Assembly (NCBI GenBank): GCA_965235115.1
Contig: OZ249436.1
Span: 3,660,001 to 3,724,000 of the forward strand
DNA: 64,000 bases
Source of the DNA: Laetmonice hystrix
Taxonomy: Eukaryota
Direction of reading: 5' to 3'
Shown here piece after piece: positions 1 to 46,313 of the stretch. Each line of letters opens with the position of its first letter. The stretch's first letter is position 1. Both the position numbers and the translations under genes were made by a program. Below the pieces are notes generated by a model. That model did not search any database, was not told the origin of the DNA, and saw only the letters and a program-made list of their open reading frames with translations.

Positions 1-961
1 GGGGAGTGAACAGAATGCTGTAGAGCAGCTGGAGCAGCGCATTCTGATGGTAGGATAGCTTCCCATTATGTGGTGAATGATTCACGAGGGGAGTGAACAG
101 AATGCTGTAGAGCAGCTGGAGCAGCGCATTCTGATGGTAGGATAGCTTCCCATTATGTGGTGAATGATTCACGAGGGGAGTGAACAGAATGCTGTAGAGC
201 AGCTGGAGCAGTGCATTCTGATGGTAGGATAGCTTCCCATTATGTGGTGAATGATTCACGAGGGGAGTGAACAGAATGCTGTAGAGCAGCTGGAGCAGCG
301 CATTCTGATGGTAGGATAGCTTCCCATTATGTGGTGAATGATTCACGAGGGGAGTGAACAGAATGCTGTAGAGCAGCTGGAGCAGCGCATTCTGATGGTA
401 AGATAGCTTCCCATTATGTGGTGAATGATTCACGAGGGGAGTGAACAGAATGCTGTAGAGCAGCTGGAGCAGCGCATTCTGATGGTAGGATAGCTTCCCA
501 TTATGTGGTGAATGATTCACGAGGGGAGTGAACAGAATGCTGTAGAGCAGCTGGAGCAGCGCATTCTGATGGTAGGATAGCTTCCCATTATGTGGTGAAT
601 GATTCACGAGGGGAGTGAACAGAATGCTGTAGAGCAGCTGGAGCAGCGCATTCTGATGGTAGGATAGCTTCCCATTATGTGGTGAATGATTCACGAGGGG
701 AGTGAACAGAATGCTGTAGAGCAGCTGGAGCAGCGCATTCTGATGGTAGGATAGCTTCCCATTATGTGGTGAATGATTCACGAGGGGAGTGAACAGAATG
801 CTGTAGAGCAGCTGGAGCAGCGCATTTTGATGGTATGATAGCTTCCCATTATGTGGTGAATGATTCACGAGGGGAGTGAACAGAATGCTGTAGAGCAGCT
901 GGAGCAGCGCATTCTGATGGTAGGATAGCTTCCCATTATGTGGTGAATGATTCACGAGGGG
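1..961 (+). repeat. 87-bp tandem array, at least 11 copies: SNX8 exon end, 5' splice site and intron start
   Basis: Unit ggggagtgaacagaatgctgtagagcagctggagcagcgcattctgatg|gtaggatagcttcccattatgtggtgaatgattcacga, period 87, runs off the left edge of the window. Confidence 0.97.
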
Positions 962-1361: not shown

Positions 1362-1834
1362 TGTATTATTATTCAGGTCTACAGTGTGAGTGGTCGGAAC
1401 AGCCAAGGTTCATGTATTATTATTCAGGTCTACAGCGTGAGTGGTCGGAACAGCCAAGCCAAGGTTCATGTATTATTATTCAGGTCTACAGTGTGAGTGG
1501 TCGGAACGGCCAAGGTTCATGTATTATTATTATTCAGGTCTACAGTGTGAGTGGTCGGAACAGCCAAAGTTTATGTATTATTATTATTCAGGTCTACAGT
1601 GTGAGTGGTCAGAACAGCCAAGGTTCATGTATTATTATTCAGGTCTACAGCGTGAGTGGTCGGAACAGCCAAGGTTCATGTATTATTATTCAGGTCTACA
1701 GTGTGAGTGGTCGGAACGGCCAAGGTTCATGTATTATTATTCAGGTCTACAGTGTGAGTGGTCGGAACAGCCAAGGTTCATGTATTATTATTCAGGTCTA
1801 CAGCGTGAGTGGTTGGAATGGCCAAAGCTCATGC
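1362..1834 (+). repeat. 51-56-bp tandem array, 9 copies, in an SNX8 intron
   Basis: Unit tattattattcaggtctacagYgtgagtggtcggaacagccaaggttcatg. Confidence 0.95.
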
Positions 1835-6451: not shown

Positions 6452-7360
6452 CATTGTAATGTAAGAAACACAAAGCTTCTACAAGTCCATTATGTACCGA
6501 TAATACCAGTACATTGTAATGTAAGAAACACAAAGCTTCTACAAGTCCATTATGTAGCGATAATACCGGTACATGTACATTGTAATGTAAGAAACACAAA
6601 GCTTCTACAAGTCCATTATGTAGCGATAATACCGGTACATTGTAATGTAAGAAACACAAAGCTTCTACAAGTCCATTATGTACCGATAATACCGGTACAT
6701 TGTAATGTAAGAAACACAAAGCTTCTACAAGTCCATTATGTAGCGATAATACCAGTACATTGTAATGTAAGAACCACAAAGCTTCTACAAGTCCATTATG
6801 TAGCAATAATACTGGTACATTGTAATGTAAGAAACACAAAGCTTCTACAAGTCCATTATGTAGCGATAATACCAGTACATTGTAATGTAAGAAATACAAA
6901 GCTTCTACAAGTCCATTATGTAGCGATAATACCAGTACATTGTAATGTAAGAAATACAAAGCTTCTACAAGTCCATTATGTACCGATAATACCGGTACAT
7001 TGTAATGTAAGAAACACAAAGCTTCTACAAGTCCATTATGTACCGATAATACCGGTACATTGTAATGTAAGAACCACAAAGCTTCTACAAGTCCATTATG
7101 TACCGATAATACCGGTACATTGTAATGTAAGAACCACAAAGCTTCTACAAGTCCATTATGTAGCGATAATACCGGTACATTGTAATGTAAGAAACACAAA
7201 GCTTCTACAAGTCCATTATGTACCGATAATACCGGTACATTGTAATGTAAGAAACACAAAGCTTCTACAAGTCCATTATGTACCGATAATACCGGTACAT
7301 TGTAATGTAAGAAACACAAAGCTTCTACAAGTCCATTATGTACCGATAATACCGGTACAT
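6452..7360. repeat. 60-bp tandem array, about 15 copies
   Basis: Unit cattgtaatgtaagaaacacaaagcttctacaagtccattatgtaccgataataccggta; source of the spurious 315/316-aa ORFs. Confidence 0.97.
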
Positions 7361-7550
7361 TTGATTCATTTTACTGACTACAGCCCCTAAACTGTATATA
7401 CGTCCCTCCTAGCACAAAAATAACGATACTCGAGATTATCAGTATATGTATTTGGGATGATCGTCAAAGCATACATTGCACAAGGCCGTGTTGGTTACGA
7501 AGGTCGCCAAAAAACCGGGGGGGGGGGGAATTGAAAACCTAAATTTATGG

Positions 7551-8895: not shown

Positions 8896-9626
8896 CATTT
8901 TTATCAAAGTTGGGCATGGAAACAAATTTTGTCGTCAGCCTGGTAAAGTTGTCTCTCACCAGCGCTCCCCCTATCCTTTATGACTTCCAACCACTTTTCT
9001 TGGAGGGGAGGGGGCCCGACACCCCCCCCCCCCCCCTGCGTAATATGGAAAATAACTTTTCAAGCAATATACTAGGCCGTATGGCCCAAATTGTAATACA
9101 TGTACAGACTTTATGATTTTGTCATACCTGCCAACTGAACACAGAATTCTCAAACCATCAAAAAGACGGCACTCCCTTATTTATCAATTGCTCTCCACGT
9201 TTCCTCTCCTGACCGGCTACATTTACCCTCAAAACAAACGTCAGCACAATTTATGGGAAATTTAGCACTGATTTTGGTCATTTGGTCAATTGTGCGATTC
9301 CTATTTTGCAAGGAAGGCAGTTGACTCAACAAACCGTCCAAGGGTTGGCAGAAGTTCTACCTGGGGTGTATGTAAAGCACGACCTAATTACGCAATGCCC
9401 ATTCTATTGCTGTATATAGGTACATTCAGCTTAAACTAGCAATACTACTAGAATCTTTACTTCCAAAACTATACATTTGGTCGAGATATTATGGTTATAT
9501 TATTAGGGAAGTTTTTTATCGCTTTACTGGCACAGCTTCTTGATGTTCTAAGACCAAAAAAAGAAAACACAAATTCCATATTCCTCACAACTTCCTTTTC
9601 TTTATTTTACACTTTGAACAGTGGTT

Positions 9627-12600
9627 TTAGTGCCTGGCCATCCATGCCTTCAGTGGTCCATGCTCAGGTTTGTACTGCACGTTAACACCATCCGACACCA
9701 AGTGTCCAGATGCACGCATCTTCTCGTACTCTTCCTTCTTCCACTTCGTGAATCCCCACTTGTTGGAAGTGAAGATCTGCAAACAAAATATAAAATCTTA
9801 GCTGCATTTTGTTTGCACAGAAATATCGTGATCTAACAACCATTCTGCCCTACATTATTACCACTTGACTAGGTAGTTGGTATATATCGTGATCTAACAA
9901 CCATTCTGCCCTACATTATTACCACCTGACTAGGTAGATGGTATATATCAAGATCTCCCTACATTATTACCACCCGACTAGGTAGTTGGTATATATTGTG
10001 ATCTCACTACATTATTACCACCTGACTAGGTAGTTGGTATATATCATGATCTAACAACCATTCTGCCCTACATTATTACCACCTGACTAGGTAGTTGGTA
10101 TATATCAAGATCTCCCTACATTATTACCACCCGACTAGGTAGTTGGTATATATTGTGATCTCACTACATTATTACCACCTGACTAGGTAGTTGGTATATA
10201 TCGTGATCTAACAACCATTCTGCCCAACATTATTACCACCTGACTAGGTAGTTGGTATATATCGTGATCTAACAACCATTCTGCCCTACATTATTACCAC
10301 CTGACTAGGTAGTTGGTATATATCGTGATCTAACAACCATTCTGCCCTACATTATTACCACCTGACTAGGTAGTTGGTATATCGTGATCTAACAACCATT
10401 CTGCCCTACGTTATTACCACCTGACTAGGTAGTTGGTATATCGTGATCTAACAACCATTCTGCCCCACATTATTACCACCTGACTAGGTAGTTGGTATAT
10501 ATCGTGATCTAACAACCATTCTGCCCTACATTATTACCACCTGACTAGGTAGTTGGTATATATCGTGATCTAACAACCATTCTGCCCTACATTATTACCA
10601 CCTGACTAGGTAGATGGTATATATCATGATCTCCCTACATTATTACCACCTGACTAGGTAGATGGTATACATTCTTGCCTTAATGTATTGTTATTATAGA
10701 CTATGATGCATGCCAGTGGTCAGGTGGTATAGAAAATTCATCACAAATTAAAATATACTGATATATTCTGTCCCGCTCACCTTCTGCCTGCCAGAGAACT
10801 TGAACTTAGCCCTCCTCAGTGCCTCGATAACATGTTCCACATGGTTTTCACGCGCACGCACAGACATGATGGGCTGTCCAATGTGCACACGTGCTACAGT
10901 TCCCTGTGGCTTTCCAAAAGCACCACGCATCCCTGTCTGCAGCCTGTAAACAGAACAACCAATGAAAGCATCAGACCAAGTTACCAGGTCAACAAAGAGT
11001 AGAGCAAATAACGATTTATAAAAAATGAGATTCAATCCTCCACCTTATACCAGTATCAGTAGATTACAAACATTTTAATGAACACATGAAAAAAGGAATA
11101 GAACAAGCCTCCACAAAAATTCTGCATACCGATCAGCGCCGGCGCACGACAACATTTTGTTGATGCGGATGACATGGAAGGGATGTAGTCTCATTCGTAA
11201 GTGGAAGGCATCTTTTCCGCAGGTCTTTACAAGGTACTTGTTAGCACAAATACGGCCTGCTTCAAGCGCCTCCGACGACAGCTGTTCATACTCATCAGAC
11301 ACCAAGTGCACGCAGAGAGGGAAGTCTTCTACTCGTGCCTTCTTGCGACCCAAGTCAAAGATGCGGATCTTTGCATCTGGGACACCCCTGCAGAACCGCG
11401 ACTTGGGGTAAGGCTTGTTCTTACAGTAGCGGTAGCTGGAAATACAGAACGATACCAAACCTTGAAACACACGTAGAACAACTTCAACAATGGAATAACT
11501 CACATTTTAGTGCTGGGTATCCAGCTTTAGGTCTGTAGACCTCATGAAAATGTCTGTTCATAGTGTGGTTTGCTGGCTCACCCCAGTTCTCATGGGGTTT
11601 GAGAACTGCAGCTATTTATGCTACCATTACTTGATCTGGCACCATCGTTACCTGCCATGTGTGACACAAAACTTCACCAGGCCAAAAAAAAAAAGATGAT
11701 GCCCATTTTTAAAATGTCGTCTCATCCAAGTTGAAATAATTATGGACAGACAGACCCATTTCAACTGCAGCCAGACTTCATCTGGGTGAAGGTTAAACTA
11801 TAATAGAACTACAAAATTGCTCTTAACAACATCTGCAAGACAACTGAATCACAATTTTTAAGCCAAAAGGAACTAACAAAAGCTTCTGACCAGCTATTCA
11901 TTCAAAATTATAGTGCAATGGCACACAACACAAATTCAAAACCTGCAGGGCACTATCAATGCATTCACATGGCTCTCGAGCTAATCATAATCATACCCGA
12001 TATATGCCTAGTGACTAGTTCGTTTCACAGGCCGCACCACCCTGGGGCTCGTTTCACATCCCGCATCGCCCTGGGGCTCGTTTCACATCCCACACCCCCT
12101 GGGGCTCGTTTCACATCCCGCACCGCCCTGGGGCTCATTTCACATCCCGCACCGCCCTGGGGCTCATTTCACATCCCGCACCGCCCTGGGGCTCATTTCA
12201 CATCCCGCACCACCCTGGGGCTCGTTTCACATCCCCCACGACCCTGGGACTCGTTTCACATCCCGCACCGCCCTGGGGCTCGTTTCACATCCCGCACGAC
12301 CCTGGGACTCGTTTCACATCCCGCACGACCCTGGGACTCGTTTCACATCCCGCACCACCCTGGGACTCGTTTCACATCCCGCACCACCCTGGGACTCGTT
12401 TCACATCCCGCACCACCCTGGGACTCGTTTCACATCCCGCACCACCCTGGGACTCGTTTCACATCCCGCACCACCCTGGGACTCGTTTCACATCCCGCAG
12501 CACCCTGGGACTCGTTTCTCATCCCGCACCACCCTGTTCTTACAGTAGCGGTAGCTGGAAATACAGAACGATACCAAACCTTGAAACACACGTAGAACAA

Positions 12601-14804
12601 CTTCAACAATGGAATAACTCACATTTTGGTGCTGGGTATCCAGCTTTAGGTCTGTAGACCTCATGAAAATGTCTGTTCATAGTGTGGTTTGCTGGCTCAC
12701 CCCAGTTCTCATGGGGTTTGAGAACTGCAGCTATTTATGCTACCGTTACTTGATCTGGCACCATCGTTACCTGCCATGTGTGACACAAAACTTCACCAGG
12801 CCAAAAAAAAAAAAGATGATGCCCATTTTTAAAATGTCGTCTCATCCAAGTTGAAATAATTATGGACAGACAGACCCATTTCAACTGCAGCCAGACTTCA
12901 TCTGGGCGAAGGTTAAACTATAATAGAACTACAAAATTGCTCTTAACAACATCTGCAAGACAACTGAATCACAATTTTTAAGCCAAAAGAAACTAACAAA
13001 AGCTTCTGACCAGCTATTCATTCAAAATTATAGTGCAATGGCACACAACACAAATTCAAAACCTGCAGGGCACTATCAATCATAATCATACCCGATATAT
13101 GCCTAGTGACTAGTTCGTTTCACATCCCGCACAACCCTGGGGCTCGTTTCACATCCCGCACCACCCTGGGGCTCATTTCACATCCCGCACCGCCCTGGGG
13201 CCCGTTTTGACATCCCGCACTGCCCTGGGGCTCGTTTTGACATCCCGCACGACCCTGGGGCTCGTTTTGACATCCCGCACCACCCTGGCACTCGTTTCAC
13301 ATCCCACACCACCCTGGGGCTCTTTTCACATCCCGCACCACCCTGGGACTCGTTTCACATCCCGCACCACCCTGGGGCGTTTCACATCCCGCACCACCCT
13401 GGGACTCGTTTCACATCCCGCACCACCCTGGGGCTCGTTTCACATCCCTCACCACCCTGGGGCTCGTTTCACATCCCGCACCACCCTGGGACTCGTTTCA
13501 CAGCCTGCACCACCCTGGGGCTCGTTTCAATAAGAACATTTCCTTGGATATGTCTATACGACACATTTCTGTCAGGCAAGGGGGTCAAGCTAGAAGAAAA
13601 TCTCAGCGTGGGGGAAACTGCCTGTTAGAATTTAGTGCTAGGTGGGCAATTGTGACATGCGAAATGCGCCATGACATGGAAGGAGTATGGTTGCCTTCGT
13701 CAGAAAATTTCTGACATTGTGAGGTTTATAGTGCAGTATCAGTGATTTTGTTGTGTTCAGTACCAAAGCGAAGGCCTTTTAGTTTAACTAGTTAAAGGGA
13801 GTCGTAAAATTCATTTTTTTTGATTTATGGCAGTCTTAGAAACATATGATTCGCATACCTTGGACTCCCAGTAACATCGTGCGAGACTGTTATGGCCCAG
13901 CGACTAGTATTTAGTAAGGAAAATATGCCAAATCTCTCGCAAATACGTAGCTCAGAATTAGCGAGCGGCCCACAGGATATTTGAGTTGGCCGCGGTCGGG
14001 CGATGATGACGCGTGATCACGTGACTTCCGGGTGTACATGCGGTATTTAGGTCAACGCTAGACTAGAGGGAGATTCCCTTCCACACCCGGAAGTCACGTG
14101 ATCACGCGTCATCATCGCCCGACCGCGGCCAACTCAAATATCCTGTGGGCCGCTCGCTAATTCTGAGCTGCGTATTTGCGAGAGATTTGGCATATTTTCC
14201 TTACTAAATACTGGTCGCTGGGCCATAATAGTCTCACATGATGTTACTGGGAGTCCAATGTATGCGAATCATATGTTTCTAAGACTGCCATAAATCGAAA
14301 AAAATGAATTTTACGACTCCCTTTAAAGTTGTGATCTAACGGACCACTTCGCAGAGCGTCCAAGAATCGCTTGGCCAGGGTAACTTGACAACTCAACGGT
14401 TTTCTGCAACACACTGTTTAGAAACAGATCTCTGACTCGGGTCAATTATTGTGTCCATAACTAATATCGGCTGAAACCTAAACTCTACCTCATTCGCCTA
14501 TGCCATTACATAGCCTAGGATTAGTAGGAAAGGCTATGCCTGTGACCTAACCCTGACAGTCTAAGACTAAGACGAGTGACCAGCAATATAACCACATCCG
14601 AGTGACCGCATCAACGTTTACCTTTTTTCCAATTGGGCTTCAATGGTAAAGTGACGTTTTGTGTGAATCTATTTAACTACTGTTGTCAAGTAGGTTATCT
14701 TTTACACTATACAACTCGTGCTTGAGACAGATCGGATTCGAAGTTCCGTTTCCCCCAAATTAGCCATGCTGATGTACTTACCACCGAGCCGGTCTCCGCC
14801 CCAT
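9627..14804 (-). CDS. RPL10: 60S ribosomal protein L10 (uL16), 213 aa, 4 coding exons
   Basis: Coding exons (minus strand): 14782-14804 (MGRRPARC), 11130-11435 ([20 protein letters not shown]...MLSCAGADR), 10781-10943 ([14 protein letters not shown]...FSGRQK), 9627-9776 ([12 protein letters not shown]...[13 protein letters not shown]). Total 642 nt, all GT-AG, phases consistent. AATAAA on minus at 9601-9606. Confidence 0.98.
9823..10669. repeat. About 61-bp tandem array (with shorter variants), about 14 copies, filling most of the last RPL10 intron
   Basis: Unit tatcgtgatctaacaaccattctgccctacattattaccacctgactaggtagttggtata. Confidence 0.95.
11416..13529. repeat. About 1.1-kb tandem duplication in RPL10 intron 2; each copy ends in a 29-30-bp minisatellite
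   Basis: 11416-12030 recurs at 12535-13130 (offset 1119) with a few substitutions and one ~25-bp indel. Minisatellite ctcgtttcacatcccgcaccaccctgggg at about 12020-12534 and 13114-13529. Confidence 0.93.
13792..14326. mobile_element. Near-perfect palindromic MITE, Kolobok/T2-like
   Basis: TTAA|AGGGAGTCGTAAAATTC...GAATTTTACGACTCCCT|TTAA; about 240-bp arms (13796-14035 and 14083-14322) with a 47-nt loop. Confidence 0.88.
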
Positions 14805-15195: not shown

Positions 15196-18100
15196 ATGAG
15201 CGGTATGTTTCTTTCAAGTGACGCTAACAGATATTTTGAAATCAAAGTTTTATTTGTACAAAACACGAGCGTGAATCTTGTCAATCTTGATCACGATTCT
15301 CTGACCATCACGGCAGCAGTAGACATACACAGATAATTGTCATTGATTGGAGTAGAGCGTGTACCCCGTGACCCCCGCCCCCGCCCCCACCCCACCCGCT
15401 GCTCGTCTGTAATAGTAATACAGCCCTTCTCGAGCACTTGTTTACCAAGGCTTCCTGCCGCGTGTGCTGAGTGAGTGCAGGGTGTGTGCAGCGTCAATCC
15501 CCGTCACTCGTCAGTAGGTCTGTGACTGTGCACAGTGCACTACTCAAGTTAGGGAGTTAGTTAGAATGTGTTTATATTCGTAATGATAATAAATCTAGAA
15601 CATTGTACCTTCTCTATTGTTAGAGTACTCACTTTACTCTCTAAGTGACCTGGGCCCGGTTCACATTTCACAAGCAAAGTCAACTTGAAGCCCCTTTTAC
15701 TTGAATTTGATTGGTTTAAATGGATTTCAATTTAATTAAAATGAACTTGACTTTGCTAATGTTATTGGTTGTGCCGGCAGAGTATGAAAAGGAGGACAAC
15801 TCAGGACATCATTTTTTCTTCAGACACGAATGTCTCATATTGAAGGAATTTCAATGATTTCTTTTTCAAAAAGGAGCCATGCAGACATCATAGTATAAGC
15901 ATAAACCTGGTTTAGTTTCATACACCTGGGGGTGGAAATTACCGCTCGCCCGTGTCGAGTTAAACCTCTGTTGGGCAACCTTGTCTGACCATTCAGGTCG
16001 CCCTGCTGGCGATTTGTCTAAAATTATTGGGCGAGTGATTTTTTTTCTGCAATCGCCTGCCCCCACAATGGCAGTCATGATACTACCGGGCAGAGAACTT
16101 AGAACTTTGTATATCTTCTTCAATAAAGATCATTTTGTTCAACAAAAAGAAGACAAAAAAAAAGAATGTTCAGTAGGTTCTAAGTTCTCCAGTTGCCCAA
16201 TCCCAGACCTTCTAGAGCCACAAGGCAGCACCTTCGACTGTACAGATTTCTGTGGGTTGAATGGCCGGGCAGTGGTCACGTGGAGGGCGAGTAACCCTTC
16301 ACCTGAACTCGCCCTCCTGGCTAGTTCATTTACAACAGGGCTAGTTAAATTTCTACTTAACTAGCCCTGCTGGCTAGTAGGTGATTTCCCCCAATTTCCA
16401 CCCCTGCCCATCTCAGATTTTCATCTGCTGGAGATAATTACCCCACTCGCCACCAGGGGGCACTACAAACTGGAAACTTTGGACTATAAACCTTTCAGAG
16501 TGTTTCTCCAGCTTTGAATAAACTTTGACATAGGGCAGGACACGATGTAATTTTATTTCTCTTGTGACAAACTCTATGTGTTTCCCACCCCGACAGGTGC
16601 CAATGCCAGGGAGATCCTTTTATTTATCAGGACGCCTGGTGGTCAGTGTTAGAACTATTCTAGACTTTACCTTTGGCAGCATGTGGTAGATAAAATTTTA
16701 ACACACTGTGTAACATTGAATCACTATGCATGTATCTCTAATTTTTTTCCAATATATTTTGAAATAGAATACAATTTTTTGGACAAAGTGTCGTTATATA
16801 TGTCCCAACACATGGCAATGGCAGGGAGTTATTGCCAATTGTCTCTAATTGGTTGGAGAAATATGTGGCTCAAACTGATCTCATCTTTGCTGCAATTAGG
16901 ATCATGTATGATGTGATCTGAAAATGACTGAAATTAAAATCTTAGTTTCGGGGTTAAATTTATTCAATGCCTGTTGTGGTCAAATACAGGCACAATACTA
17001 AACTCTGTTGAGGTGCAGATTAAGAAATTCTGACTTACGAAGGTATTCTTCCCTCACCCCTTGTCCCTGCAGTTATCTTTCAGGTGAAACTTTCTCTCTG
17101 ATTTATAGTGTATCAGGAGATATGGCTATACTTCATGTGTGCACCATATTACAATAATATTCCTGTTCGATCTTCCAGGAACCACAGCACAGTTCCAGAC
17201 GGAGCGCCAGAACCTTCTGACACGACTGCTGGATGCTGTCAAGCAGGTACAACTTTCATGAATTCATTTTCTTATCACCAGATAAGCAGAAAATTATGAC
17301 CTTTTTCAAAAAGCAACCATGAAAGTTTCTTGAAATCTGATATTTTGACAAAGCCAGTATTGTGTACCATATGGTGACAGCTTACAAGGGGATCCAAAAT
17401 TGCCTATTATTCCACTAAAATTCTGATAAGTGTAGGAAAACCACTGAGAAACAATTGTATAACTGGAATAACAATGTTTGTTGACTTGGTGATTCTCAGT
17501 GTCAGGTTCGGTTTGGTGGGCGTCGAGAACTTGCAACTGAAGGAGACAGCAGGTAACTGTCCACAATGTACTTGTGTATGGTTTAAAATGTACTGTAAAG
17601 AGAAGGAATGACTTATCTGACAGATAAATACTCCTGGAAAAATAACTTTACAGGGAGGGTGATATTTATTTTCAAAATCCTGTGTAATTTGTACCCATGA
17701 TTTGTTCCATGGCATTCTTGAAATCAGGAAATGTAAAAATGATGACACCAAGTTTGCTAAGAGATGTGAATAATTTGAACTGTATCCATGGATGGTGTTG
17801 ACAGGGTGACGTGTCTGTGTGCAGCCTGGGAGGCAGCGCTCTCACACGGGATGAGGCATACTAACAAGGCTCTCTCCACACTCAAGTAAGTTAGCGGGGG
17901 TGGGGGTGGGGGTGGATACATGCATATGTGGTCAAAGGTGATCTATTTGATATTATCATTGATAAAAGGTTTCATGCAGGGACAGAAATATTTGGTGGAC
18001 CATTTTTGAAAATGGGGGTTCTTGAGGAATTCTGTGCATCTTGTAGCTATGGGTGATTTTTAAAAATTCTAAGTTTCTAATACTAAGTCAACGATTCTGT

Positions 18101-21100
18101 TTCAAGACATAATCTTTAAAAAGATAAATTGAAATTCTAGGCCTGGCAGAAAGGCTTTATCCAAACTCAAGTAAGTGACCTACCATGGTCTCTACTATCA
18201 AGGACCAGCTCTCCCTATGTAGACCAAAGAATTGTGATTTTTAAATACCTTTTTACAAATAAGTTGATTTGATTTAGGTCAGTCAGTAACATTTTATTCC
18301 CACCACTGACCCTGTTATGACCCTGTTATGTTATTTTATCATAAAATAAGTGCAACTAACATCTACTCAGAGTGTTGTAAGATTACTCATGTAAGATAAC
18401 AGGAGCCTGAGATAGCACTAACCCCCCCCCCCCCCACCCCCACCTGAGAATAAGTACCGGATCAAGTATCAGTGAAGCAGAGACAAGCATAATGAAGTTC
18501 ACAAACTGTACACATAAATATTCCCTTGTCATATATATAAGCCACAAAAAAATGATGCTGAATCCCTCAATTTGTCATTTTTTGTCCATTCAAACTACAG
18601 GCAGGTGACAGAGCTGACTGGCCTGACCAAAGTGGCGTCAAATATTGGTATTCTGGACAACATTCAACACCTGGAAACAGAACCAGGTAAGTGCCATAAT
18701 ACACTACCAAATCTTCCTGGACAACATTCAACACCTGGAAACAGAACCAGGTAAGTGCCATAATACACTACCAAATCTTCCTGGACAACATTCAACACCT
18801 GGAAACAGAACCAGTAAGTGCCATAATACACTACAAAATCCGAGACAACATTCAACACCTGGAAACAGAACCAGGTAAGTGCCATGATACACTACAAAAT
18901 CATGGACAACATTCAACACCTGGAAACAGAACCAGGTAAGTGCCATAATACACTACCAAATCTTCCTAGACAACATTTAATACCTGGAAACAGAACCAGG
19001 TAAGTGTCATAATACACTACCAAATCCTGGAAACATTCAACACCTGGAAACAGAACCAGGTAAGTGCCATAAGACACTACAAAATCCGAGACAACATTCA
19101 ACACCTGGAAACAGAACCAGGTAAGTGCCATGATACACTACAAAATCATGGACAACATTCAACACCTGGAAACAGAACCAGGTAAGTGCCATAATACACT
19201 ACCAAATCTTCCTGGACAACATTTAACACCTGGAAACAGAACCAGGTAAGTGCCATAATACACTACCAAATCCTGGAAACATTCAACACCTGGAAACAGA
19301 ACCAGGTAAGGGCCATAATACACTACCAAATCTTCCTGGACAACATTCAACACCTGGAAACAGAACCAGGTAAGTGCCATAATACACTACCAAATCTTCC
19401 TGGACAACATTCAACACCTGGAAACAGAACCAGGTAAGTGCCATAATACACTACCAAATCTTCCTGGACAACATTCAACACCTGGAAACAGAACCAGGTA
19501 AGTGCCATAATACACTACCAAATCTTCCTGGACAACATTCAACACCTGGAAACAGAACTAGGCAAGTGCCATAATACACTACCAAATCTTTCTGGACAAC
19601 ATTCAACACCTGGAAACAGAACCAGGTAAGTGCCATAATACACTACCAAATCCTGGACAACATTCAACACCTGGAAACAGAACCAGGTAAGTGCCATAAT
19701 ACACTACCAAATCTTCCTGGACAACATTTAACACCTGGAAACAGAACCAGGTAAGTGCCATAATACACTACCAAATCCTGGACAACATTCAACATCTGGA
19801 AACAGAACCAGGTAAGTGCCATAATACACTACCAAATCCTGGACAACATTCAACATCTGGAAACAGAACCAGGTAAGTGCCATAATACACTACCAAATCC
19901 TGGACAACATTCAAAACATGGAAACAGACCCAGGTAAGTGCCATAATACACTATCAAATCTTCCTGGACAACATTCAACACCTGGAAACAGAACCAGGTA
20001 AGTGCCATAATACACTACCAAATCCTGGACAACATTCAACACCTGGAAACAGAACCAGGTAAGTGCCATAATACACTACAAAATCTTCCTGGACAACATT
20101 ATACACAGTGGTGAATATTGCAGTGTTCTGGCAGTACGTGAAGGATTTAGTGATATGAAATAAGTTGTGAATATTGCAGTGTTCTGGCAGTACGTGAAGG
20201 ATTTAGTGATATAAAATAAGTGGTGAATATTGCAGTGTTCTGGCAGTACGTGAAGGATTTAGTGATATGAAATAAGTGGTGAATATTGCAGTGTTCTGGC
20301 AGTACGTGAAGGATTTAGTGATATGAAATAAGTGGTGAATATTGCAGTGTTCTGGCAGTACATGAAGGATTTAGTGATATGAAATAAGTGGTGAATATTG
20401 CAGTGTTCTGGCAGTACGTGAAGGATTTAGTGATATGAAATAAGTGGTGAATATTACAGTGTTCTGGCAGTACGTGAAGGATTTAGTGATATGAAATAAG
20501 TTGTGAATATTGCAGTGTTCTGGCAGTACGTGAAGGAACACTTGAGTAAACACGAGACCCAGCGGTATATGCTGCTTCATCATGTGAGCACTGATGCTGG
20601 TCGAGGACGAGCCTGGCTACGATCAACTCTTAATGAACACTCACTGGAGAAATACATGCACATGGTACTGGAGGATGGTCCTATGCTCAGGTAAATGATA
20701 ACAAATCTGTAAAATGTAATAAAACTAAAGGAACAGTATGATTTAAGTTTGATTGATTACCTCCCAAATTCAAAAACTCATATGAAGTATACTAGTAGGT
20801 ACTGTATATACCCAATAGATCACAGCATCCCCCCCCCCCCCCCCCCGAGTTCCACCTCAAGGCTGGGGGGGGGGGGGTGTGGCCATGATCTATCCATAGT
20901 GAACCCTTCCAGCCCACAGAGCCAGACTCTGGCATAGTTCCCCCACTCCCCACCAGGGGTCACTACACTTGCACAAGGACTTAGTTAATTTCCTATTGCT
21001 GCAATTATATCTGGCATAGTTATTTTTATACATTTTTGTATTGAATACTTCTTAACACTAACCACCAGCATCTTACCATATCCTGCCTTGACACCTGGCT

Positions 21101-24100
21101 CTGTAAGGACAGCAAGTCTGCTCACTTGGTGAGACACCTAGTGGTTATTGTATGAACTAGAATGGTCATTGCATGTGTCCATCTGTCATGGCTTTGAATG
21201 TGGTGTGGGGGGTTTGGGGACAATCCTGCCATACAAAAGGAACATTGATGATTGAATAACCCTCTAAAGTTTCTTCAAAAGATGTTTTGAAAGCAAAGAG
21301 AACTTTCTGGCTATATTGTGACAAGGCATGTTTTGTCCAGTACAGTTAGATGTGGTAAGCTTGGGGAGAGCAGATCAGGGAGGAGCTCAACAATTCCAGG
21401 AAACTTTTTCCCAGACCATGGGGTCCAAATTCCCCTGCGGCTATGTTTGGTGCTGCCATCTATTGGGTATACACAGTAACTGTACTCTGGTTTTTTTATG
21501 AGGACCTTGTTTGAGGACTGGTCATTCCTGAGGGACCAGGAACGATTGAGCATGCTCCCAATGATCAATGGTTTGTTTATTAGGACCTTGTTTGAGGACT
21601 GGTCATTCCTGAGGGACCAGGAACGATCGAGTATGCTCCCAATGATCAATGGTTTGTTTATTAGGACCTTGTTTGAGGACTGGTCATTCCTGAGGGACCA
21701 GGAACGATCGAGTATGCTCCCAATGATCAATGGTTTGTTTATTAGAACCTTGTTTGAGGACTGGTCATTCCTGAGGGACCAGGAACGATCGAGTATGCTC
21801 CCAATGATGGCAGCGGGACTTGGCTCCATTCTCTTCGCTATCAACATTGACAACCCTGATCTCAACACCATAAAGCCAGCGACAGGCCTTGATGCCATTC
21901 TCAGCTCCACACCACCGTCGAGAACATTCGCACCTCGAGCAGAGGAGGAGCCTCGTCCTGTCATTAACACAGACATGTCGCCCAAAGGTATGGACACGGT
22001 TCTCGTGGATATATGGCAGAGATTTTCTGGAGATTGTTAATGTTAATGACAAATTTATGGCTGTTTCAACTTTCGTTAACTTGATGATATGTTTTTTTAT
22101 TGTAGCATGTAATTTGGATGCATTTATCAAAAGATACTTTTATATTTGCCTTGCTTAGATGTTTGTTATGGAATAGATGCAAAAACGTTGGTGTTTTTGA
22201 CAAGAGTTATGGATAAGTTCACCAACAGTTATTGCAATGGATCAGTATTTAAGTTCCTTGTACAGTAGGGTTGTCAACAGTCAGGTTTATGATGTTAACG
22301 CACCACATCAAGCAATCAATAAAACTCTTTCAGCTGAGAGGAGAAAGGAAAGGAAAAAGAAGAAGAAGATAGCACACATTGTTTCATTTGACAATGATGA
22401 CGGGACAAGCTGCAGCACTTCACCCGGGTCATCAGTGACAAGCCCCCAGGTCAAGTCAAGCGGGGTTGATCTCAACTCTCTGCCGACTATCATTGCCAGT
22501 AACACCCCCAGACAAACTGCCGTTGGCTTCAGTCCAGTTGATACAGCTCCTGCGGTACGGCAGTGTGTTGTAACACATGACAATGATGTAATGGTGGCAG
22601 TACCAGTCATGGCAGACACACAGCCTGTGATGAATGGCAGTGAGAGTAATGATATCTTACCGGGTGAAAACATACCAACAGTATCTGAACGAGACCAGCC
22701 GTGCCAAGCTCACTCAAACCTGGATCTAGAGGCCCAACCAGTTGAACAGCCTGAGATAGTTGTAAAACAAACACCTGTAGAAAATGGCCATGTATGTCAA
22801 GATGAAGCTGTGATGACAGGGAGCGCTGATCCATCCTCCCGCGGTGACTTGGAGAGATTGTCAGAGGGAGAGATCAGAAAACTGGAATCGCTGCCATGTA
22901 GTGCTCGAGACCATGAAACACAAACAGATTTACGGGTGTGTGACACTCAGACCACTGATTGTAGATCAAGGTCACCACAAGGTCAACATGAGAAGACCTG
23001 TGATGACAGTACTGAAGGCGAGCTCCGGGAACGGTTCTACAGTGTGAGTGAGGATTACCAAGGTACAAGTTCTGTGACCACTGAGCAAACACAGGATAAT
23101 GTTTCACCAGAAATAGAAAATTCTCTACCAGAGACAGCGTCACCATCTGTGAATATGTTTGAGGTCGGAGCGCCACCTAGTGAGGGTGAGGAGAGTGGAT
23201 CAGTGACAAAGTCATCAAGTGTCATTCCATGGGAACCTGTCACCGACGCTGCGGACAACACAAGTTCACCAGAGAAGTCAAAACACTTAGCTCGCCCAGA
23301 GAGCCTTAAAGGGTTTGAGAACGTTGATCGTTACATGCTGCCACGGAGAGACTCGTTGGACAGTGTCCCATGTAGTGTCCCAGGTGACTCAGAGAAAAGA
23401 GACTTGCTGCGTCAACGTTTAGGTAACTGGGAATCAACAGATAGTGTTGAGGTTCGCTCAATTACAAGTACTTCATCCATTGGTGAACCTGTCAGTTCAC
23501 CGACACTTCAGAAGTCGGCCAGTGAAGGGAAGATTGAACAAGGGTAAGCAATACTTCAACGATAAATTATGAATCTTTTAAAAGTATTGTCACAGATAAT
23601 AATAACTGAGAATTTGCTTTATAATTAAATGCTCAGACTTTCTCAAGGAAGGGGACATGGTGGGGGAGTGAGTCATCATAATGCAAGGCTTAATAAAATT
23701 ATTCTAATAAAATTGGTGAAATAAAGAGGTCTTTTTATTTTGATCCCTCAACTTAAAAAGGTGTTCTATTTGTGTCTATATAACGTCAGTCAAAGGTTGT
23801 AAAGAGTAATATTAACCATGATATATTGAGCAAGATACTTCAATACTTGATGGTCTCTCTTTGTTAGTCATCTGGTACCATACAATAGCCATGTTGGAGC
23901 GTTAACCCCCCTCAGTCCAGAGGGTCAGCCCATTGATGGAGCCTATATGATGCCGCTGGCATGTGCCGCTAGTTCTGAGGACTCGCGATCATGTAAGTAA
24001 CATGCTGTTACTGTAAAGGTGACAATTTGTGAAGTGGGGTCACCATTCAGGATCTATGGGTTAAGTTATTTAGATGACCTTGAGAAATTCTAAAGAGAAA

Positions 24101-27100
24101 TGTTGGTATGAGACTTGTCTTTGGTCAAAAGTGGAGGGACAGGATAATTTTAAGATGTCTTTATTATATGCACTAATATTGCCACCAATTGCAGAGACTC
24201 TTATAGTTATTTTTGACGGATTCCCTAAAACTTATCAGAGATTAATCTATAAAATTTTGTGATATAGTTCTTGATGATTTCTAAAACTTTGTGATAACTT
24301 TGTAGATGATTCGATAGAAGTGCCAAGCTATAATGAAGACACAGACAATGCTGCGTATGCCCTGGCTGTCACACAGCAAGGGTACATGGCAAGGTAGGTC
24401 AAATACTGGGTTCAGTATAATGTTTAAAAGTGTAAATAAAATATCATCTGTCATATTACATTAGGTCCTAACACCTAAAAGCTAAAGGATTTCAAAGTAG
24501 GTGCATTCAATAGACCTTTTATTTATATTGAAATTCCTATGAATTTCTTGTTGTGTCAATGTTTAATATTTGATCGCGTTTTGTTTTTCCCAATTGACAG
24601 TCATGAACTTCATTCAGGAACCGGAGGTCACTTCTCACCAGAAGCTGTAGCTAATGACACTTTGTCTCCAGGTACCTCATGCTCATTTTTCATCTTCTAA
24701 AACTGGGATTTTTAACTTGGGGGCGCAGCGTCTTAGCTAATCCAGACACCGACACAGGGTCAGTTACCCCACTCACAACCAGGGGGTTTTACAGATTCAT
24801 AGAGAAACTCTGGACTTATTCCAGTTCTCTGATATATGTTGTCTTTCTGCAGCATTTAATCAATTTCATAAGGCAGGCAGATTACGTGATAATTTCATTT
24901 TTACCATGGACATTTCTTAATTGTTGTTTACTCTGGTTTCTGGATCTAATTCTAGGTGAACTTAAACAGGCGCTTGTTGCCATGATGCTCCGCAAGGATG
25001 AGTTAGAACGGCTCTGTCATTCACTACAGGTAAAGATTTTTACTTGATTTTCCAGCAGTAGTAATTTCCAGAAACGTTGTTGGCTCCTCCTCCTTAAAGT
25101 ATAAGAAAAGCTTTTTGTTAATGTTCTGATCTGTTTCCTACTGAATTTAATCCATGTGGTATCTTTTGTTTTTGTCCTTGAAGGGCGGCCTTGAGGTTGA
25201 GCATGAAGTCTCAGCTGGTTTACGGATTGAGTTGGAGGAAGTCAAGCGGAACAGCGCTGCACTTGAGGAAAAAGATGCTGAGAAGTTGAAAGCACTTTCA
25301 AAGTAAGTACTGCTTCATGATGCTGGTTTGGATCTAAGGCTATTTGAGAACTGCCTTAAGTGTAAGTTCTGTTCTTTTCCCGTTCAGAGAAAATGAGCTG
25401 CTGAAGCATCAGTTGCGGAAGTATGTGAATGCCGTCCAGATGCTTCGTACCCGCGGTGCCTACACAGACGGTGAGTGAAGTATTGACTGCCGTTTTATTC
25501 CAGTCCTATGTTAACATGGTTGAGTCCTTGTTTGAGGAATCATTGCTCTATTATGTAATTCCCATGAATTATGGGGTAGTGGTGAGAGATAATGTTTTTG
25601 TCAGGTCTTGAGACGGAGGTAGACGTTAGCGTTCAGATCAGGGCAAGTGTTACCACGGGGGATTGATTATTGGAGAATTGGTTTCAGATATCCCGGGGAT
25701 TCATATGGAGGAACCTCAACCTGTTATACCACCACCCAAACCCAGCATTGACTACAGCCATGAGGCCTCGGAATACGAGAAAAAACTTATACAGGTCAGT
25801 CGGTGGGCTTTGTTAAATACAGGGATGAGATTTTTAGGGGCCCTTGAACCTTACAGTTCAAGAAACAGCAGCTTTGGGGGCCTCCCCCCAAAAACGGATC
25901 TGCAGAAAATCCTGAAAGTAAAACTGTGAATGTGTCCCAAGTGACGAGTGCACTGAGTAACCCCCATGCCCCTGGGTACTACCTGCAGTCAGTACTGTAA
26001 GTTTGACCTGTTTGACCTGCAGTCAGTACTGTAAGTTTGACCTGTTTGACCTGCAGTCAGTACTGTTTGACCTGTTTGACCTTGTAGGTGGCCGAGATGC
26101 ATGGTGAGTTGATGGAGTTTAACGAGGTCCTGCACCGTCAGCTGAGTAGTGTTTGACCTGTTTGACCTGTTTGACCTTGTAGGTGGCCGAGATGCATGGT
26201 GAGTTGATGGAGTTTAACGAGGTCCTGCACCGTCAGCTGAGTAGTGTTTGACCTGTTTGACCTGTTTGACCTTGTAGGTGGCCGAGATGCACGGTGAGTT
26301 GATGGAGTTTAACGAGGTCCTGCACCGTCAGTTGAGCAGTAAGGAGATAACAATTAGACGACTCAAACAAGAACTCACAGACCTTCGTGGACCCGTAAGT
26401 TTGTCTACTTATAACTTATACTTATGAACCTTTAACTGTTTATTTCCATGGACAAGTGGGGCTGTCAAACATCTCACCACCCCGTCATACCATATTGTCC
26501 CGTCATTGAATGCCAATTTGTGCTAGAGTTTAATATGATTAAGGTTTCTTTTCTTTTGGTAATACAAATATAATTCTATTTGTGTTTTGACCAGCTGCCC
26601 GCTGAGTTCCAAGGTTCCGACGACAGCACCAGTGTGTCCTCAGATATTGATGTGTAAGTGTCATGGGTCTGTACTAAACGTTCAGTGTGCCAGGCAGCTG
26701 ATCTTAAACAGATTTTGCACCAAATTTTGTCACTTCTGAGGTAAAAAGTCAGCAATATCAAACTAATATTAAAAGTGTAGAGATTTGCTAATAGTTTTTA
26801 TGAAGCTTTTATGTATTTTTGTTCCTCATACTTTCATATAACTGTGATACATTTATCTCTACAGAGCCTCGATGAACCGCCCCTTAGTCAATATTTGGAT
26901 TCCTTCAGCCTTTCTCCGAGGAACAACTTCAGATGCTTATCATATTTATCAGGTAAATGTCCAGAACATTCCTGACCCGTGTAATATTGCTGTGATCTCT
27001 TAACAGATGATATACAGTAGGTGTCTATATGTTATAGGTTTATGTTCGCATCCGAGATGAGGAATGGAACGTCTACCGCCGCTACGCAGAATTTCATGAA

Positions 27101-29657
27101 CTTCACTCCAAGCTTAGGAAGAAATATCCCATTGTCAACACGTATGAATTTCCTCAGAAAAAGACATTTGGAAACAGGGTAAGTAGACACAGTTACTTAT
27201 ATCCCGGTGAGTGAAACCTCAAGGACAGACCGTCTGTGGTTGAAGAAGTACACTATTGAATCCAATGAATGGGACACGATTATTATAGGTATCCAGTAAA
27301 CCTCAAGGGCAGACCGTCTGTGGTTGAAGAAGTACAATATTGAATCCAATGAATGGGCCACGCTTATTATAGGTATCCAGTGACAGACCGTGGTTGTCTG
27401 AAGAAGTACAATATTGAATCCAATGAATGGGACACGATTATTATAGGTATCCAGTGACAGACCGTGGTTGTCTGAAGAAGTACAATATTGAATCCAACGA
27501 ATGGGACACGATTATTATAGGTATCCAGTGACAGACCGTGGTTGTCTGAAGAAGTACAATATTGAATCCAATGAATGGGACACAATTATTATAGGTATCC
27601 AGTGACAGACCGTGGTTGTCTGAAGAAGTACAATATTGAATCTAATGAATGGGACACGATTATTATAGGTATCCAGTAAACCTCAAGGACAGACCGTCTG
27701 TGGTTGAAGAAGTACAATATTGAATCCAATGAATGGGACACAATTATTATAGGCATCCTGTGACAGACCGTGGTTGTCTGAAGAAGTACAATATTGAATC
27801 TAATGAATGGCACACAATTATTATAGGTATCCAGTGACAGACCGTGGTTGTCTGAAGAAGTACAATATTGAATCCAATGAATGGGACACAATTATTATAG
27901 GTATCCAGTGACAGACCGTGGTTGTCTGAAGAAGTACAATATTGAATCCAATGAATGGGACACAATTATTATAGGTATCCAGTGACAGACCGTGGTTGTC
28001 TGAAGAAGTACAATATTGAATCCAATGAATGGCACACGATTATTATAGGTATCCAGTTTTATAAAAAGCAGGCTGAGGCAAATATTAATTTATAAGATGT
28101 CTTCATTCTTAACTGAAATGTTTCCTTAAGGGTGTAATTTCTAAAGTTAGTTCAGTGTGAGCTGCAGATATTGAGATCATCAAGGCTGTAGACAGTTGTT
28201 GGATAATTGTGCTGCTACCTTTAATTCAGGACCCCAAGTTTGTGGAGGAGCGGCGACGTAAACTACAGATCTACCTACGTCAGGTGATCAACCTGCTCCT
28301 TCAGACTAACGTGGATTTTATTGCCAATGTCAGCCGCGAGAGACTTCTCCAGGTAGCGCCGTTCTTTGGGTGAGAGATCTGTGTTAATGTCTTTATTTGA
28401 ACAGTTAACTTGTTTTTTTTTTATAATTGAAACAACTGCTGTTTGTTTTAATTTACTGGTAGTTTTATCAAGTTTTGAAAGGTGAAATAAAATAGTAGTA
28501 AGAGAGACAACGGGAAGTAAGGAATTTCATTGTTATAGAGATATACTTGCACTTATTATGTGTGTCATATAATAATGTTATACATCCTCATGTCTTCATA
28601 CATCCTACACACATGTTCCTGTGATATATTCCAATAGACAAGAAATAATTTTATCACGACAGTTAGTAATAGCAATCATGGTAACACTGCCATAGACTTA
28701 CTTACAACAGAGCAGGTTCCTGGCATTTAACATACAATTAAACATAAGCTCTTTGATAAATTTATCTTAAACAGATCTGAGTAACTGTAAGTACCTTCAG
28801 ATGTGAATTCATGCATAGGTACTAAAGTTATGCATACATTCATCCCTGAACCTTAGCAAAGATCTGGACACGTTTTTTTATTCTTTTGAAATTAAAGTGA
28901 CGATATTGAGAAATGTTCATAGATCTGTCCTCCAGTCGATACCCGTGTCTCTACTAGCAAACATTTGGTGTGAAGTTGCAACAGGTATTCTTCTATTCAT
29001 TTGTATGAAAAAAACAATGGCAGAAAGAAAGAAAGGTAATAAGGTAATACACCCATATCAGTAAATGATTTATGGTCTTTTGTTCAAATCAGCAAAGGAA
29101 TTGGTTTAAGTTTATCGTTATTTGGATTTTGGTGGAAATTGAATCTGGTAATAAGACCCCAACAGATTGCTTGCTTGCTCGTACTAAGTCCTAGATATTG
29201 GTAAGAGCTTCCATTGCCTTATTATCAAGCTAGTGCTAAGTTCAGGTGACACGTAGGAGGATATAAACATGGCAGCTTAAGGAAAAGAAGTATCCAAGAA
29301 ATATAAGAAATCTGGGATTCGTTCTCAGTGATGAGAATAAAGTTTTGTAGAATAAAAATAATTCTGAGAAGGAAAATCATATGCAGGAATTGAAGATTTA
29401 CATGTGACGTTGGATTAGAAATATCCTAAATCTATCAACCTTAGTTTAAACTACCAGGTAGTATTATAGACTTACTGGTATATTACTGGTATGTATTAAG
29501 GGTGATTGTGATACTGACCACATACCTTATAATTCACAGTGAGGTGCCTGCTGAAGACAAGAAAAATAGACGAAAATCTTCAAAAAGGAAAGGGGGAGGT
29601 CGAGTACCCCCAGCTACACCAGCTCAGACCCAGGCCCAGCATTACACGGGGTTGTGA
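15196..29657 (+). CDS. SNX29: Sorting nexin-29 (RUN domain, coiled coil, PX domain), about 1083 aa, 21 coding exons
   Basis: Exons: 15196-15202, 17179-17246, 17500-17552, 17805-17885, 18601-18686, 20516-20690, 21746-21987, 22334-23543, 23868-23992, 24306-24393, 24601-24671, 24956-25029, 25184-25302, 25388-25470, 25688-25794, 26278-26394, 26595-26653, 26865-26952, 27038-27178, 28230-28369, 29540-29657. Sum 3252 nt, open frame, all GT-AG. Motifs: LLDAVKQCQVRFGG, GRGRAWLRSTLNEHSLEKY (RUN), MLPMMAAGLGSILFAINIDN, VAEMHGELMEFNE, IWIPSAFLRG, WNVYRRYAEF, FVEERR (PX). Confidence 0.95.
15926..16406. mobile_element. Degenerate hAT-like MITE in SNX29 intron 1
   Basis: GGGGTGGAAATT...AATTTCCACCCCTG inverted termini, same terminus family as 52127-52386; no clear target duplication. 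Confidence 0.5.
18654..20100 (+). repeat. 60-64-bp tandem array, about 23 copies: SNX29 exon-5 end and 5' splice site
   Basis: Unit ctggacaacattcaacacctggaaacagaaccag|gtaagtgccataatacactaccaaatcttc; the first copy is the coding exon end (LDNIQHLETEP). Confidence 0.97.
20107..20537 (+). repeat. 56-bp tandem array, 8 copies: 3' splice site and SNX29 exon-6 start
   Basis: Unit tttagtgatatgaaataagtggtgaatattgcag|tgttctggcagtacgtgaagga; AG ends at 20123, 20179 ... 20515; only the last copy continues as the exon. Confidence 0.97.
21501..21808 (+). repeat. 81-bp tandem array, 4 copies: 3' splice site and SNX29 exon-7 start
   Basis: Unit caatggtttgtttattag|gaccttgtttgaggactggtcattcctgagggaccaggaacgatcgagtatgctcccaatgat; AG ends at 21502, 21583, 21664, 21745. 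Confidence 0.96.
25981..26340 (+). repeat. 95-bp tandem array, 3 copies (plus gtttgacct sub-repeats): 3' splice site and SNX29 exon-16 start
   Basis: gtttgaccttgtag|gtggccgagatgcaYggtgagttgatggagtttaacgaggtcctgcaccgtcag; exon-like starts at 26088, 26183, 26278. Confidence 0.95.
27213..28057. repeat. 74-84-bp tandem array, about 11 copies, in SNX29 intron 19
   Basis: Unit gacagaccgtggttgtctgaagaagtacaatattgaatccaatgaatgggacacgattattataggtatccagt. Confidence 0.95.
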
Positions 29658-45810: not shown

Positions 45811-46313
45811 CACTACGACTCCTGTCTGATGGACCTCCACTTGTATTACCATTACGCTGAGTCTGACTATCACACTATCTGACATTCTCACTACGACTCC
45901 TGTCTGATGGACCTCCACTTGTATTGAGATCACCATTACGCTGAGTCTGACTATCACACTATCTGACATTCTCACTACGACTCCTGTCTGGTGGACCTCC
46001 ACTTGTATTGAGATCACCATTACGCTGAGTCTGACTATCACACTATCTGACATTCTCACTACGACTCCTGTCTGATGGACCTCCACTTGTATTGAGATCA
46101 CCATTACGCTGAGTCTGACTATCACACTATCTGACATTCTCACTACGACTCCTGTCTGATGGACCTCCACTTGTATTGAGATCACCATTACGCTGAGTCT
46201 GACTATCACACTATCTGACATTCTCACTACGACTCCTGTCTGATGGACCTCCACTTGTATTGAGATCACCATTACGCTGAGTCTGGCTATCCATCACACT
46301 ATCTGACATTCTC
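45811..46313 (-). repeat. 84-bp tandem array, about 6 copies, overlapping the 3' end of the Josephin CDS
   Basis: Minus-strand unit gagaatgtcagatagtgtgatagtcagactcagcgtaatggtgatctcaatacaagtggaggtccatcagacaggagtcgtagt. Confidence 0.95.

Follow-up and report, generated by a model that had tools for sequence, protein, structure and literature searches.

A fourfold, in-frame repeat of the exon-7 acceptor of an SNX29 gene is most likely a silent mirage minisatellite

When an acceptor splice site stands four times in tandem at the head of a conserved exon, and each of the four would keep the reading frame, which copy does the gene use, and does the repeat contribute protein sequence to a folded domain? 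This is the question raised by an 81-bp tandem array that straddles the border between intron 6 and exon 7 of an SNX29 orthologue. The gene lies in a stretch of 64,000 nucleotides, referred to here as the window, from whose first letter all positions are counted. A preliminary description of this DNA had proposed that the upstream acceptors could add 27-residue modules to the RUN domain of the encoded protein.

The host gene occupies 15196..29657 on the forward strand, and our 21-exon model of it encodes 1078 aa, with a RUN domain, a long linker, coiled coils and a PX domain. An N-terminal RUN domain, a C-terminal PX domain and best matches to named SNX29 proteins together identify it as SNX29; the model shares two blocks of ≈45–60% identity with these named proteins, and the presence of the PX domain is suggested by 50–58% identity to the homologues in the region where they carry PX. 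Exon 7 finds its best matches among mollusc and nemertean proteins, with up to 65% identity, which points to a lophotrochozoan host. Pfam recognizes the RUN domain both in exon 6 (E 4e-9) and in the read-through form of exon 7 (E 1e-7). Exon 6 (20516..20690, forward strand) holds the RUN core and is followed by a donor GT at 20691 in phase 2, and exon 7 in its conserved form (21746..21987, forward strand) supplies the end of the RUN domain and is followed by a donor GT at 21988. With the exon-6 acceptor set at 20516, no insertion appears in the alignment to the homologues; a candidate acceptor at 20501 (AAG) was rejected, the homologue alignment favouring 20516. Two further elements of the model were matters of choice: the exon-10 acceptor was placed 3 nt downstream (24321), which keeps the frame, and the first coding exon (7 nt) was chosen by eye. 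The exon-10 acceptor is itself a tandem site (24316–24320, forward strand), a TAG followed by an AAG, and only the second leaves an open frame in the 21-exon model.

Other features of the gene model deserve mention in their own right. SNX29 here has many short introns and one exon of 1210 nt (exon 8), which gives it a longer linker than that of other SNX29 proteins. An in-frame indel polymorphism is present at 23095 within this linker exon, where 21 nt are missing from the contigs of two runs, which also differ by several substitutions. In intron 4, a segment of 30 nt between an AG and a GTAAGT (18141–18170, forward strand) is similar to the final part of exon 4 and would keep the frame; it is possibly a cassette exon or an old partial duplicate, and no extra segment like it occurs in the sampled homologue rows. 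An intron just after the motif 'MAAG' (window 21815–21825) is apparent in several other animals, from proteins translated straight through the DNA (P0194, P0210, P0212, P0213 and P0233). The gene studied here and its close relatives P0086–P0088 read straight through this point, which suggests a loss or a lineage-specific absence of the intron in these genes.

The array itself is reported by TRF at 21488..21808 (forward strand) as 4.0 copies of an 81-bp unit with 97% matches and no indels, a fourfold repeat far beyond chance. In each unit, the intron tail with its AG accounts for 15 nt and the exon head for 63 nt, and a filler of 3 nt completes the repeat. The AGs of copies 1–4 stand at 21501–02, 21582–83, 21663–64 and 21744–45, the first within a GAG and the other three within TAG, and the acceptor positions listed in the preliminary description (21502, 21583, 21664 and 21745) are the G of each of these dinucleotides; its exon-6 donor position, 20690, likewise fits the GT at 20691. 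The first exon base is a G for the three upstream acceptors (21503, 21584 and 21665) and an A for copy 4 (21746), so copy 4 can indeed be told apart, as had been proposed, by an A rather than a G after its AG. Copy 1 (21500..21565, forward strand) runs from its GAG acceptor (21500–02) into an exon head with one Ser-to-Leu and one silent change. Copy 2 (21566..21646, forward strand) consists of an 18-nt linker ending in TAG (21581–83) and the exon head, and its use would add 54 aa; copy 3 (21647..21727, forward strand), with a linker ending in TAG at 21662–64, would add 27 aa; and the copy-4 acceptor segment (21728..21745, forward strand, TAG at 21743–45) gives the conserved protein length. Copy 4 alone is continuous with the remainder of exon 7 and the donor that follows it.

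The four copies have not diverged evenly. Copies 2 and 3 are identical and copy 4 differs from them at a single, silent base, whereas copy 1 differs at 4–5 of 78 positions, among them a T-to-G change at −3 and the replacement of a Ser by Leu. None of the 19 other acceptors of SNX29 is a GAG, none of 85 homologues has Leu at the changed column, and the replacement is non-conservative; copy 1, marked by both changes, is decaying. Two earlier claims need to be narrowed accordingly. The 27-residue unit and its junction peptide exist as described in copies 2 and 3 and not in copy 1, where Leu takes the place of the first Ser of 'ERSS', and the upstream tracts of the three TAG acceptors, said to be identical, are so for copies 3 and 4 over 113 nt, whereas for copy 2 the identity extends over only 32 nt.

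These features place the array in a known class of repeats. Its units are of minisatellite size and stand head to tail, they span an exon-intron border and duplicate the splice signal of an exon that homologues confirm, and the inner copies are homogenized while the boundary copies stand apart. By this structural definition, the array is a "mirage" minisatellite, and thus one more example of repeats that have already been described. Mirages are known from the amphioxus genes for Adh3, troponin C, the globins BflGb6 and BflGb9, and PGBD5 (PMC3087553, PMC3902484), with units of 10–160 bp (PMC3087553), and they are reported in both papers not to disturb splicing. The SNX29 array resembles them in that the unit spans the border and repeats the splice signal and in that several arrays occur in one gene. 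For BflGb6 (PMC3087553), the likeness extends to a unit of intron end plus exon start and to a turnover pattern in which inner copies are homogenized and the boundary copy has diverged. Unlike the amphioxus mirages described there, the SNX29 unit is 81 nt long, in frame and stop-free, and silence and length polymorphism were shown in amphioxus, whereas the silence of the SNX29 array is a prediction. The host is not an amphioxus: exon 7 is 48–49% identical to Branchiostoma SNX29, as compared with the higher values found for mollusc and nemertean proteins.

What, then, does the open frame signify? The earlier observation that the 81-bp unit is a multiple of 3 and free of stops is correct, and each upstream acceptor would add its 27, 54 or 81 aa in an open frame: joining the exon-6 donor to 21503, 21584, 21665 or 21746 gives frames of 1159, 1132, 1105 and 1078 aa, respectively. 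A frame kept without a stop is what a functional alternative acceptor should show. Among ≈190,000 acceptor duplications simulated in SNX29, 34% were in frame and 22% were also stop-free, and when the intron part was as short as it is here, 26% were both in frame and stop-free. The chance of at least one in-frame, stop-free case among the three acceptor arrays of the gene is 0.49–0.60. The open frame of the 81-bp array is unremarkable, and most likely an accident of its 81-nt length.

The proteins of other species bear on the same point. A spacing of 58 residues across the exon-6/7 junction is kept in 80 of 85 homologues, and the remaining five are shorter or partial; none is longer. Both anchor motifs are present in 123 of 237 proteins compared, where they are separated by 37–40 residues in 122 cases and interrupted by an unrelated 13-residue insert in one, and a tandem module was found in none of the 237. 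The closest relatives, P0086–P0088 (84–95% identical), start at a Met after the junction and are uninformative on the module. Among the matches listed in the protein searches, none was a product of this gene that covers the junction, and a metagenome scan returned one distant, intron-less locus (L001, 43%) without the insertion. Eleven of 150 listed matches were multi-stretch matches; seven of these look like SNX29 fragments (short-intron read-through or otherwise module-free), and of the other four, three are unrelated repeats and one is a gene model from a fish, in which the duplicate is non-adjacent. With no longer homologue among the 85 and a non-conservative change in copy 1, the conservation expected of functional alternative acceptors is absent.

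To place the module in the fold, we used the AlphaFold model of the homologue P0002, which matches the RUN domains of SKIP/PLEKHM2 and PLEKHM1 and has a pLDDT > 90 throughout the RUN core. The module corresponds to residues 153–173 of this protein, comprising a helix end, a loop (residues 157–164), a short helix and the start of the last RUN helix (residues 171–180, pLDDT ≈94), of which it takes in three residues, and the invariant residues P172, A176, G177 and L178 lie beside the module end. Judged from this model, an extra module would either break the last RUN helix or bulge from the 157–164 loop. Our literature search found no paper on binding partners of the SNX29 RUN domain.

The most direct indication of how SNX29 deals with such repeats comes from its other arrays, three of which also lie on splice sites of the forward strand. 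The 61/64-bp array at the exon-5 donor (18653..20100) holds 20 extra donors found, the 56-bp array at the exon-6 acceptor (20107..20537) holds seven extra acceptors and the 95-bp array at the exon-16 acceptor (26063..26340) holds two. The copies are near-identical, and all 29 of the 29 extra sites would truncate the protein. Because of this, exon-distal copies must mostly be ignored in SNX29, position rather than strength must pick the site, and an intact, conserved SNX29 can arise only if donor arrays are spliced at their first donor and acceptor arrays at their last acceptor, which restores the original short exon. Exon definition predicts this outcome, the pairing of the first donor with the last acceptor, and the model that uses the exon-proximal sites is an intact SNX29 of 1078 aa. 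A point that tells against silence is that four of the six arrays of the gene are on splice sites, as compared with 1.5 expected (P 0.036, for one gene and post hoc). Within 18653–20537, intron 5 consists almost entirely of a donor array and an acceptor array that lie 6 nt apart and together hold 27 decoy sites. In the 95-bp unit at exon 16, the AG is directly followed by a GT, and the exon carries a consensus-like GTGAGT 16 nt in; splicing of that array could conceivably take a recursive or micro-exon route.

At exon 7, the site sequences themselves give little guidance, and the earlier statement that splice-site strength alone cannot separate the copies is borne out. An acceptor matrix built on 19 sites, and thus of little power, scores copies 1–4 at 0.53, 0.24, 0.24 and −1.38, all of which fall inside the range of real acceptors (−4.7 to 7.4); copies 2 and 3 score no worse than copy 4, which is the lowest of the four because of its +1 A. 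Local RNA folding predicts copy 4 to be the most accessible (0.57 versus 0.43, 0.43 and 0.27), but global and local accessibilities disagree, the global value differing for copy 2, and we have given them little weight. A putative original branch point, TAAC at 21477..21480 (forward strand) as read from the sequence, has its A at −24 from copy 1 and resembles the branch consensus. Because this likely original branch point precedes copy 1, copy 4 would have to use one derived from duplicated exon sequence, for which the A at 21726, within copy 3 on the forward strand, is a candidate. Most of intron 6 is a high-copy element (20802..21476) with terminal inverted repeats and a TA on both sides, which we infer to be MITE-like; its summed contig depth rises to ≈2400, as compared with ≈57, and the predicted pairing of its arms is weak (≈0.18). 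On its right, this element ends directly at the putative branch point before the exon-7 acceptors. Rfam gave no match in the window.

The explanation that we consider probable is that the array is a silent mirage: at least 90% of the mRNA joins 20690 to 21746, and use of the upstream acceptors amounts only to unregulated noise. The array would have begun as a short duplication over the intron-6/exon-7 border, taking in the 15 nt of intron and 63 nt of exon together with the 3 nt of filler by a mutational route that we infer, and this border-spanning duplication would later have expanded to four copies. Most likely the spliceosome picks the acceptor nearest the downstream donor, in which case copies 1–3 would leave with the intron and 20690 would be joined to 21746. 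The 37-bp VNTR in intron 7 of human F7 offers a parallel, in which splicing normally takes only the exon-proximal donor, even though the remaining copies can function (PMC1557585). Like the SNX29 array, it consists of identical tandem splice-site copies; unlike it, the F7 VNTR is a donor array, is mammalian and was tested in constructs. Other published evidence weighs against silence: classic experiments with duplicated sites, as recounted in PMC1557585, gave opposite results in two laboratories, and in human genes in segmental duplications, a repeat-keeping transcript also exists for 66% of the intron modifications that repeats cause (PMC2812944). In the titles and abstract openings covered by our literature search, we found no report of an in-frame mirage acceptor in use. 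A survivor bias is possible, in that frame-breaking arrays would persist only where they are silent, whereas an in-frame array could persist while leaky. A minor isoform with 27 or 54 additional residues is thus conceivable, given that copies 2 and 3 score at least as well as copy 4 and that in-frame leakage could escape NMD.

A more consequential version of such leakage, in which copies 2 and 3 rival copy 4 as acceptors and supply at least 10% of the SNX29 mRNA, would yield mRNAs that escape NMD and encode RUN domains lengthened by one or two 27-aa modules; we consider it unlikely. The frames are open, copies 3 and 4 share their 113 nt of upstream sequence, and copies 2 and 3 have the commoner +1 G. 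The structural objection could be avoided if the extra module looped out at any register, since residues 157–164 form a loop in the homologue model from which it might bulge with the core still folded. A leaky splice-site copy in a VNTR is also documented: in the 25-bp VNTR of human ABCA7 intron 18, the next donor copy is used in some transcripts (PMC5954066). In both cases a splice site is repeated, such that a shift to the neighbouring copy would lengthen the mRNA by one unit, but ABCA7 has a donor array with a frame-shifting unit whose use was observed, whereas in SNX29 such use is hypothetical. Against substantial competition stand the equivalent decoys elsewhere in SNX29, which must be largely ignored, the absence of the module from every relative examined and the local folding that makes copy 4 most accessible, though the global fold disagrees for copy 2. 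It is more doubtful still, and in our judgement very improbable, that the main acceptor lies upstream, at the first AG after the old branch point, such that the usual protein of this animal or haplotype carries an insertion and the GAG of copy 1 was selected to limit it. Intron definition, which would favour upstream acceptors, may operate in SNX29, given its numerous short introns and its exon of 1210 nt. Intron 6 without the MITE-like element and the extra copies measures ≈135 nt, and the ancestral intron was probably this short; the branch-like TAAC before copy 1 is predicted to be unpaired (0.92); and, of the four copies, the first alone no longer has a YAG. However, the first copies in the exon-6 and exon-16 arrays retain intact acceptors, CAG and TAG, whose use would truncate the protein, and use of the first AG therefore cannot be the rule in SNX29. 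The GAG of copy 1 is, moreover, a single observation, and the length of the segment is conserved across animals.

Two further explanations appear to us barely credible. The array might represent an intron gain or the birth of a micro-exon in progress, a copy becoming a small exon or the array a new intron, along the lines of a Rogers-type gain or of the Ebner et al. model, which is proposed for mirages in PMC3087553. Copies 2–4 do hold a GT at +48 in a donor-like context, but its use would give a 47-nt, frame-shifting exon, and AGGT, the proto-splice site of a Rogers-type intron, and AGGC are both absent from 21488–21808. Because they are absent, neither a Rogers-type intron nor recursive splicing would remove the extra copies cleanly, and a wrong choice of acceptor could not be undone by recursive splicing. 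The other explanation, at the same low level of credence, is that the four copies are an artefact of assembly, produced by a mis-join or by merged haplotypes. The sample is heterozygous, with many substitutions and a 21-nt deletion among its contigs, and no listed contig of this one sample spans the array. Yet the copies carry private differences, and tandem arrays of this kind make up 24% of the window (15,521 of 64,000 bases). The contigs of three runs, moreover, break exactly at the end of the array: in three of the four contig sets, which come from one sample that is possibly the source of the window, a contig starts at 21779, the first 31-mer outside the array, and the summed contig depth in the array bin is ≈1.6–1.7 times that of the next bin. 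Because the contig graph breaks exactly at the array end with raised depth inside, the repeat is present in the raw data. Across 20501–27200, three of the four runs of this sample cover introns and exons evenly, as expected of DNA, and cover in the fourth is limited to 6 of 30 bins; the rows listed for these contigs include no splice joints, and, given their DNA-type cover, have no bearing on splicing.

If the array is a silent mirage, as we think most likely, it matters little, and its chief use is experimental. NMD conceals leakage at frame-breaking mirages, but in this array splicing to any of the upstream acceptors would give a stable mRNA; with copy 4 marked by its +1 A, the exon-6/7 junction becomes an NMD-free readout of the choice among identical acceptors. 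Were substantial upstream use to be found, the repeat would be making additional protein sequence, within a conserved domain, out of DNA from an intron border, and competition among copies 2–4 would make the mirage a protein-level VNTR, with a ladder of forms set by the copy number of the allele.

Several other repeats and genes of the window are recorded here as separate observations. An acceptor array ≈20 kb upstream of the exon-7 array (1362–1833, forward strand) has units of 51, 54 and 56 nt and nine acceptors at 1377–1796, each an AG followed by a GT; six of its eight upstream copies are in frame and open, with the phase assumed, and an Atlas search returned no identity for the gene that carries it. 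An array of 11 copies of 87 bp (1–961, forward strand) looks like a repeated donor of this same gene, with a stop after each donor-like site in the apparent frame. An array of 15 copies of 60 bp (6452–7361) is open in one frame on each strand and has a donor-like site on the forward strand and an acceptor-like site on the reverse strand. A gene of the ribosomal protein L10 type (9600–11600 and 12540–13110, reverse strand; Pfam Ribosomal_L16) carries a 48/61-bp array in its last intron, and its 5' part and the DNA upstream of it are duplicated beside 29-bp arrays. A Josephin-domain exon (Pfam; 45811–47032, reverse strand) is followed by six copies of an 84-bp unit that seems to reiterate the last part of the reading frame. 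A long inverted repeat (13960–14320), recognized by eye and centred at ≈14060, lies in the interval that separates the L10 gene from SNX29.
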